Origin: a virus
Length of the DNA stretch: 64,000 nucleotides
Strand: one strand, 5' to 3'
IMG/VR virus record: IMGVR_UViG_3300045971_000354
Span: 1 to 64,000 of that record
Positions 43,076 to 44,175 of this stretch are shown one piece after another. The position numbers were made by a program, and so were the translations under genes. Within the stretch, counting starts at the first letter, position 1. Every line of letters begins with the position of its first letter. The notes beneath the pieces are model-generated. The model had not been told where the DNA came from and did no database searches. It saw only the letters and a list, made by a program, of their open reading frames with translations.

Positions 43076-43960
43076 ATGTCAAATTCGCCGTTACAGCCCA
43101 TGAAAAAAGTTAATCCGTTAACAAGTTTCATGCGCCAACCCAAAATTTACATTACATTGCCCAGCCAAGGAATGTATTGGGCACCCGGAAGTATACAAGT
43201 TCCGGAAACAGGCGAACTTCCTGTATTTTCAATGACTGCAAAAGACGAACTTGCGTTTAAAACTCCCGATGCATTACTTAACGGTCAAGCAGTAGTTGAT
43301 GTTATTCAAAGTTGTATTCCCGCTATCAAGGATGCATGGCGTACTCCTAATATTGATCTCGACTTAATCTTAATTGCTATTAGAATTGCAACGTACGGTG
43401 AAAAGATGGAAATTACTCACAAAGTACCAAATACTGAAGAAGAAGTAGAGCACGAGATCGATCTTCGAACACTTGTTGATCAATTGTCAATAAGCAAATG
43501 GGAAGAAGCTGTAGATATTAGCGACGATCTAACGTGTTTTATTCGACCTCTAACTTATAAGCATATGACTGCTACCGGGTTAAAAACGTTTGAAACCCAA
43601 AGATTAATGCAAGCTGTGAACGACGAAACGTTAACTGATGAAAGAAAATTAGAAATTTTCAATCAAAGCTTTAACAAAATGACTGACATTACTATCGATT
43701 TAATGGCAGACACTATTTCAAGTATTCAAACACCTGATGCAATTGTTAAAGATCCTGTGTTCATTAAGGAATTTTTGCAGAATGCCGATAAAGAAGTTTT
43801 CCAGAAACTTCAAAATCATTTAAACAAACTGAAATTAGTTACTGGATTACAACCGTTAAAAATGAAGTCAACTCCCGAGCTAATTGAAGCAGGGGCTCCT
43901 GAAACTTACGAGTTACCAATTAAAATTGACAACGCTGATTTTTTCGGACAAGGCTCTTAA
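43076..43960 (+). CDS. Baseplate hub assembly protein (gp26-like) / tail assembly chaperone
   Basis: RQPKIYITLPSQG, MTAKDE, DLDLILIAIRIATYGE motifs. Start at ATG 43076 after SD GGAG. Ends ...DFFGQGS. Confidence 0.75.
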   Translation: MSNSPLQPMKKVNPLTSFMRQPKIYITLPSQGMYWAPGSIQVPETGELPVFSMTAKDELAFKTPDALLNGQAVVDVIQSCIPAIKDAWRTPNIDLDLILIAIRIATYGEKMEITHKVPNTEEEVEHEIDLRTLVDQLSISKWEEAVDISDDLTCFIRPLTYKHMTATGLKTFETQRLMQAVNDETLTDERKLEIFNQSFNKMTDITIDLMADTISSIQTPDAIVKDPVFIKEFLQNADKEVFQKLQNHLNKLKLVTGLQPLKMKSTPELIEAGAPETYELPIKIDNADFFGQGS

Positions 43961-44175
43961 CACTATCTAATCAAGAGATAGAAAAGCTCGTTAAGAGCCT
44001 CGAAGACGAGTCTAAATCATTTAAAAAGAATTTGTTTAAACTTTGCTGGTATATGCGAGGAAGTTTAACTTTCGAAGAAGCATTTCAGCTTGACCACGAA
44101 AGTCGAGAAATTATATATCAAATAGTTGAAGAGAACCTTGCAACTACAAAAGAAAGCGGATTACCTTTCTTTTAA
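43939..44175 (+). CDS. -1 frame extension (gp51-like / GT-type chaperone C-terminus) reached by ribosomal frameshift
   Basis: 78 codons open directly after TGA 43936-43938: FFRTRLLTLSNQEIEKLVKSLEDESKSFKKNLFKLCWYMRGSLTFEEAFQLDHESREIIYQIVEENLATTKESGLPFF. No SD-supported start; begins at slippery T TTT TTC. Confidence 0.7.
   Translation, partial: FFRTRLLTLSNQEIEKLVKSLEDESKSFKKNLFKLCWYMRGSLTFEEAFQLDHESREIIYQIVEENLATTKESGLPFF

Follow-up and report, generated by a model that had tools for sequence, protein, structure and literature searches.

In the 64,000-nt stretch of viral DNA analysed here (referred to as the window), a gp26-like gene ends shortly after a T-rich heptamer, and a second ORF without a usable start continues from the same heptamer in the -1 frame. 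The locus therefore raises the question of whether the two ORFs are separate genes or one gene with two products, and how the second product would be made. Judging from the sequences of the window and its relatives, we consider it probable, at roughly 0.85, that the gp26-like gene of this large T4-related phage is expressed as two proteins, one short and one long, through a programmed -1 ribosomal slip at T TTT TTC. The window was taken from a record that is a 143-kb fragment, estimated to be 40% complete. The features referred to below are the following, with the basis of each call in brackets:

40199..43000, minus strand: tape-measure-like gene, 933 aa, divergent neighbour (PHROG matches)
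43076..43960, plus strand: gp26-like gene, short form or TAC-N, 294 aa (PF12322 match)
43936..43938, plus strand: TGA closing the -1 frame directly 5′ of the slip site (sequence)
43939..43945, plus strand: slippery heptamer T TTT TTC in the X XXY YYZ phase (sequence; relatives)
43939..44175, plus strand: -1 extension ORF, 78 codons and stop, C-terminal domain of the predicted long form
43946..43950, plus strand: spacer of 5 nt from heptamer to stem (sequence, folding)
43951..44000, plus strand: putative stimulatory stem-loop (folding; pairing in relatives)
44172..44837, minus strand: convergent neighbour gene, 221 aa

Reading frames at the end of the gp26-like gene

In the zero frame, the gp26-like gene ends with GCT GAT TTT TTC GGA CAA GGC TCT TAA, with its stop at 43958-43960. 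The initial annotation had placed a slippery heptamer, T TTT TTC, at 43939-43945 and a TGA that closes the -1 frame at 43936-43938, and we found both there. After this TGA the -1 frame is open for 78 codons, up to a TAA at 44173-44175, and the stop of the extension ORF shares the sequence TTAA with the stop of the convergent gene, as had also been described. The earliest ATG, GTG or TTG of this ORF is a TTG at codon 31 (position 44032).

As a control for chance, the other long ORFs of the window were examined in the same way, and in 1 of 35 a heptamer was likewise in phase, with a long ORF after it in the -1 frame. The pattern in a single sequence is thus not rare, and it is conservation in relatives that takes the frameshift call beyond chance. 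The control case, at 46302-46329 on the minus strand, is the end of a gp46-like gene with an in-phase A AAC CCA and a 105-codon -1 ORF after it; this ORF is the next gene (46012-46305), whose own ATG overlaps the stop (ATGA coupling).

Proteins encoded at the locus

The gp26-like protein matched the Pfam family PF12322 (T4_baseplate) at 46.5 bits (cut-off 24.5; E 4.8e-12), which was the sole Pfam match at this gene, and it also matched phrog_150, a baseplate hub family. No second PF12322 gene was present in the 143-kb record. The AlphaFold model of the N-domain, that is, the gp26-like protein, had a pLDDT of 88; Foldseek found no match to it in the PDB at E <= 0.001, and a wide VIA-align search gave generic helical-hairpin matches only (Z <= 8.3). 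The extension was modelled as a helical domain (pLDDT 87), with no match in Pfam and, among the PHROGs, a weak match to phrog_26290 (unknown function) only.

The 933-aa neighbour matched the tape-measure families phrog_4200 and phrog_1272 (E 8e-10 and 3e-9, respectively). It adjoins the gp26-like gene and is transcribed divergently from it, and RaK2 has the same divergent neighbour. The convergent 221-aa protein (44172-44837, minus strand) has a high content of Ala, Gln and Pro and a middle part resembling a coiled coil, and it showed faint matches only, among them the head scaffolding family phrog_73 (E 0.04). No DNA-level relative of the locus was detected by blastn among 50,697 phage records.

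Conservation of the heptamer and the -1 frame in environmental relatives

Relatives were collected from IMG/VR in two sets. The first comprised 73 loci whose gp26-like proteins were 33-73% identical to that of the window, and 63 of them held the downstream ORF, in 45 distinct contexts. The second, retrieved with an alignment query, comprised 80 loci and 64 distinct contexts with the same properties, so that the union of both sets amounted to 106 distinct environmental contexts. A related-locus search with one in-frame fused protein as query found nothing.

The initial annotation had suggested that the heptamer and the -1 register be followed in homologues, and both proved invariant: T TTT TTC was present in the same phase in 106 of 106 contexts and was always followed by a -1 ORF of 77-79 codons. 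In the 45 contexts of the first set, even the octamer TTTTTTCG was invariant and in phase. The features around it were variable in these contexts, since the zero-frame stop came 3, 5 or 6 codons past the start of the slip site and the upstream -1 stop 0-15 codons before it. A homologue of the extension, aligning from its first residues, was found in the -1 frame in every first-set locus that reached far enough downstream. The first ATG, GTG or TTG of the -1 ORF could lie anywhere from codon 3 to codon 38 in this set, and an ATG within six codons of the heptamer was seen in 11 of the 106 contexts. Shine-Dalgarno-led starts of the second ORF in variable frames, which had been named as the observation that would argue against frameshifting, were therefore not the pattern of this family; the frame was always -1.

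The -1 ORF is coding from the slip site on. Upstream of the heptamer, the most variable alignment columns were the third positions of the zero frame (1.54 bits of entropy, compared with 0.70 at second positions), while from the first codon after the heptamer they were the third positions of the -1 frame (1.37 compared with 0.70). The codon before TTT TTC varied (AAT, GAT, ACT, CAT, AGT), yet its third base had zero entropy, so that the X XXY YYZ heptamer comes with conservation at synonymous positions among homologues. The extension itself was conserved as a protein from its first residues (FFRxRLL...WYMRG...GLPFF).

A stem-loop downstream of the heptamer

In the window, 5 nt separate the heptamer from the beginning of an 11-bp stem (43951-61/43990-44000), inside which lies a 6-bp hairpin (43963-68/43976-81). 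Both the stem and the inner CTATCT/AGATAG pairing, described in the initial annotation, are part of the minimum-energy structure given by RNAfold. The 58-nt element has a folding energy of -19 kcal/mol and a z-score of -4.5, and none of 200 shuffled sequences folded as well.

The relatives that have the stem share a 5′ arm with the consensus AAGGCTYTTR, which begins 3-6 nt past the heptamer. The best contiguous stem had a mean length of 10.9 bp, compared with 5.7 bp at control positions of the same genes, and in 30 of 43 relatives it exceeded all 30 of the relative's own controls. Twelve relatives have the 3′ arm at the position seen in the window, with 90.9% of cells paired (slid controls, 18-56%), C-G/A-U exchanges, and two pairs changed on both sides. 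Another 23 relatives pair this 5′ arm with a 3′ arm about 15 nt further downstream; here 90.5% of cells were paired (slid controls, 27-60%), five pairs were changed on both sides, and none of 500 shuffles reached the observed covariation. The covarying positions change amino acids on both arms, and constraint on the protein therefore does not explain the pairing. The 5′ arm may have stayed fixed while the 3′ arm moved among at least three positions, with loops of about 16-28, 42-52 and 9 nt.

A contiguous stem of at least 9 bp was present in 55 of the 106 contexts and was weak in the enterobacterial RaK2/121Q/GAP32 group, which means that the putative stimulator is not universal. The covariation for which the initial annotation had asked is there, though about half of the family has a weak stem or none.

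Relatives with the extension fused in frame

When 1.84 billion representative proteins were searched with a profile built from the extension, 486 relatives were retrieved. Most of them are short ORFs, which gene callers start at more than 10 different positions of the profile, and about twenty are proteins of 319-351 aa that carry the extension domain at the extreme C-terminus. The six long relatives that were scanned consist of PF12322 and the extension in one frame. At the junction, the predicted transframe products align without gaps with these natural fusions (…FDxSxFF/RxRLL… and …LDxSxxF/RxKLI…, respectively, the slash marking the junction).

Seven distinct in-frame-fusion loci were found in IMG/VR. 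None of the seven has a T6 run at the junction, and all seven have a second, N-only paralogue immediately adjacent. Accordingly, the equivalence with lambda G/GT that had been put forward for this gene gains from these loci, where an in-frame long form always stands beside a separate short form, as T4 has both gp26 and gp51. This substitution of duplicated genes for the frameshift is a natural experiment which argues that both forms are needed. One further locus (L093:5856-7940) has an N-only paralogue together with another gp26-like gene in which the predicted frameshift into the extension is retained, and it may be an intermediate between the one-gene and the two-gene arrangements.

Cultured phages and the T4 gp26/gp51 pair

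The closest cultured relatives are jumbo myophages, among them Atu_ph07, Phosso, the RaK2/121Q/GAP32 group and the PA5oct group. The heptamer T TTT TTC was found in phase in 11 cultured phages. The count of PF12322 copies covered six of these, namely RaK2, Atu_ph07, Paride (PA5oct-like), S-PM2, P-SSM2 and KVP40, which have one such gene each and a -1 ORF of 59-79 codons; the same heptamer and a -1 ORF were found in Phosso, 121Q, Munch, GAP32 and Vibrio 2.275.O. In RsoM2USA (L084, 1468) the run is T8C and in RAS14 (L085, 1527) it is T7A, with -1 ORFs of 82-84 codons and no clear stem.

None of the sampled cultured-phage records carries a ribosomal slippage annotation. The -1 ORF is left blank in these records, or is given as a 'hypothetical protein' from an internal start, or, in cyanophages and KVP40, as a separate mini 'gp51'. 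The cyanophage and KVP40 ORFs, annotated as genes in their own right, have 59-62 codons, and five codons past the heptamer they contain an ATG. In P-SSM2 (L169:2184-2240), the annotated 'gp51' ATG lies inside an 11-bp hairpin (AGTATGGCTCA/TGAGTCATACT); in S-PM2 (L170:2181-2240), the annotated 'gp51' ATG likewise lies five codons after T TTT TTC. The position of the P-SSM2 ATG would hinder initiation and fits a role of the hairpin as a frameshift stimulator.

T4 has two PF12322 genes, gp26 (baseplate hub subunit, 208 aa) and gp51 (hub assembly catalyst, 249 aa). Both match the model from end to end, and gp51 carries in addition about 48 aa as a C-terminal tail. The terminal FF of T4 gp26 is encoded by TTC TTT, which is not slippery. 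The -1 ORF of S-PM2 matched the tail of the gp51 family with a probability of 90% (E 1.4e-6). A profile of the in-frame fusions was collinear with the gp51 family over its whole length at E 1.9e-4, at a probability of only 47%, while the match of the window extension profile to the S-PM2 ORF was weak (E 0.03). Comparisons by hhalign of our alignments with single T4 gp26 or gp51 sequences were too weak, and were informative only with the gp51 family profile. Taken as profile similarity, these results make it probable that the extension of the window clade is gp51-tail-like.

The initial annotation had described the locus as a gp26/gp51-like pair. As regards the PF12322 domain and the logic of a short and a long form, this description holds; the extension, for its part, probably corresponds to the C-terminal tail of gp51 only. 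It is not gp51 as a whole, because the entire N-domain is common to the two T4 paralogues, gp26 and gp51. Homologues of T4 gp51 (P0153-P0244) carry the precomputed Pfam label PF28602.1 besides PF12322. PF28602 was absent from our Pfam scan of T4 gp51, seemingly because it is not in the Pfam copy searched, and the in-frame fused relatives with the window-type extension domain do not have it among their listed families.

Proposed expression of the gene and alternative explanations

On the reading that we prefer, most ribosomes would stop at the TAA at 43958-43960 and release the 294-aa short form. A minority of ribosomes, with two tRNA-Phe on UUU UUC and a pause held by the stem-loop 5 nt downstream, would slip in tandem back by one base to U UUU UU and continue in the -1 frame (…NADFF/RTRLL…). 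A further 76 residues would be added in this way, and the long form would have about 366 aa. Both forms would share the PF12322 N-domain, and the C-terminal helical domain would be present on a sub-stoichiometric fraction only. By analogy with lambda gpG/gpGT and T4 gp26/gp51, the two forms may act as a chaperone pair for the tape-measure protein and for tail-hub assembly. This function is suggested because the gene adjoins a tape-measure gene, belongs to the family of T4 gp26/gp51 and follows the short/long logic. We infer that the slippage is translational and that a minority of ribosomes takes part in it. A point against this reading is that, to our knowledge, U UUU UUC does not figure among the slippery sites best known to be efficient in bacteria.

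The same long protein would result if RNA polymerase added one U on the T6 run, so that a subpopulation of mRNAs had the two ORFs in frame. The site is indeed a homopolymeric T run, and the longer runs of RsoM2USA (T8) and RAS14 (T7) make these two phages the cases where such transcriptional slippage is most plausible. Efficient polymerase slippage, however, normally needs runs of about 8-9 or more, whereas the run is exactly six T, followed by C, in all 106 environmental contexts, and its phase is fixed to X XXY YYZ. Moreover, a covarying hairpin 3-6 nt downstream is a hallmark of ribosomal frameshifting, and we know of no role for such a hairpin in polymerase slippage. We therefore regard transcriptional slippage as improbable for this family. 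A broken gene, either a fused gene interrupted by an indel in the homopolymer during sequencing or assembly, or a gene in decay, would also leave two ORFs in different frames; indel errors are common in such runs, and in-frame fused versions do exist in other lineages. The break recurs at an identical base in 106 independent metagenomic contexts, and in cultured phages with finished genomes as well, which leaves this explanation with a negligible probability, and the in-frame versions belong to different lineages, without the T6 run and with a second paralogue. Sequencing error in particular is ruled out by the recurrence in finished genomes.

It could also be argued that the -1 ORF is a separate small gene, a 'mini gp51' with its own initiation or with termination-reinitiation after the gp26 stop. 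This is how it is annotated in the GenBank records of cyanophages and KVP40, and an ATG does occur 3-5 codons past the heptamer in 11 of the 106 contexts, as it does in some of the cultured phages, KVP40 and the cyanophages among them. In certain cases this ATG and the stop overlap, as ATGA or TAATG. In the window, on the other hand, codon 31 of 78 is the first that reads ATG, GTG or TTG, although residues 1-30 are already conserved as protein, and this rules out independent initiation for the window ORF. The codon periodicity in the -1 frame from the heptamer on speaks against a separate gene as well, as does the P-SSM2 start codon inside the downstream hairpin, and the invariance of T TTT TTC, including its synonymous third base, would be left unexplained. 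In the natural in-frame fusions, in addition, the domain is seen to work as an extension at the C-terminal end of the N-domain. A separate gene is thus very unlikely as an explanation for the family, while separate initiation is possible as a side route in the minority of relatives where an ATG follows the heptamer.

Implications of a probable frameshift in gp26-like genes

Read as a programmed -1 frameshift, the locus gives a corrected gene model for a conserved tail-assembly gene, with one gene and two products. On this model, the gene is mis-annotated or left blank in the finished genomes sampled, including RaK2, 121Q, GAP32, Munch, Paride, Atu_ph07, Phosso, Vibrio 2.275.O, S-PM2, P-SSM2 and KVP40. 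This reading would also bring the long-puzzling T4 hub 'catalyst' gp51, together with gp26, under the short/long logic that is universal among the chaperones of long-tailed phages.

Tentatively, the T TTT TTC frameshift could be ancestral to the T4 superfamily, that is, to RaK2-, PA5oct- and Atu_ph07-like jumbo phages, cyanophages and KVP40, with partner-switching of the hairpin along the way, although we consider this rather doubtful. If it is ancestral, what hundreds of genomes annotate downstream of gp26 as 'gp51' mini-genes or 'hypothetical proteins' would be the -1 extension of gp26 rather than genes, and the separate gp26/gp51 pair of T4 would be a derived replacement. The relocating 3′ arm, if true, would make partner-switching visible in a recoding signal, which is rare, and a covarying hairpin of this kind is well suited for testing tools that predict frameshifts. 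Possibly, neither the extent across the superfamily nor the relocation of the hairpin arm has been reported; this whole reading is new only if it is not already contained in Vladimirov et al. 2022.

Comparison with known systems

Three lines of published work bear on the locus. A conserved -1 frameshift in the tail-assembly-chaperone (TAC) genes of long-tailed phages is textbook knowledge (Xu, Hendrix & Duda 2004, Mol Cell 16:11, as cited in PMC9024508). For T4-like phages, gp26 and gp51 have been described as TACs (Vladimirov, Gautam & Davidson 2022, Virology 566:9, as cited in PMC10885494 and PMC12846349); according to the same study, some of these phages have a short gene and a long fused gene instead of frameshifting (via PMC10885494), and poly-T slippery sequences occur in their TAC-N genes (via PMC12846349). 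A -1 frameshift has further been proposed for the TAC locus of Pakpunavirus/Vandenendeviridae phages, where the protein family is another one, the motif is GTTTTT and no covarying hairpin is reported (PMC12846349). In the open literature that we searched, no paper describes a gp26 frameshift in jumbo phages or cyanophages.

The 'mini gp51' ORFs of KVP40, S-PM2 and P-SSM2 resemble the extension of the window in their position, in the -1 frame and in the terminal T TTT TTC G of gp26, and P-SSM2 and S-PM2 also have hairpins downstream. The window ORF differs in its length of 78 codons and in having no usable start. With T4 gp26/gp51, the window gene shares the Pfam family of the N-domain and the long/short logic, and the T4 gp51 tail is collinear with the window-type extension and clearly homologous to the cyanophage -1 ORF. 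Unlike the window, where a single gene would give both products, T4 encodes the two forms in separate, divergently transcribed full-length paralogues without a slippery site.

The likeness to lambda gpG/gpGT lies in the arrangement: two overlapping ORFs beside the tape-measure gene, a heptamer near the end of the first, a start-less second ORF in the -1 frame, and two products, short and long, with a common N-terminus. As with lambda-type TAC genes, the frameshift is kept despite sequence divergence, and two genes replace it in some relatives. The slippery heptamer of lambda is G GGA AAG, while that of the window is T TTT TTC with a covarying hairpin, and the window protein, of family PF12322 and about 290 aa, is roughly twice the size of gpG. 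The position next to the tape-measure gene, with which the initial annotation associated lambda G/GT-type chaperones, is borne out as far as adjacency goes, but not in its order, since the two genes of the window are transcribed divergently and the lambda-type order is tube-TAC-TMP. Neither a TAC Pfam match nor a tube-TAC-TMP order on one strand, which would mark membership of the gpG/gpT family, was found at the locus. By analogy, the gp26-like gene would work like gpG/gpGT without being a member of the gpG/gpT family, and the mechanism is the classic tail-chaperone frameshift of lambda G/GT rather than a new one.
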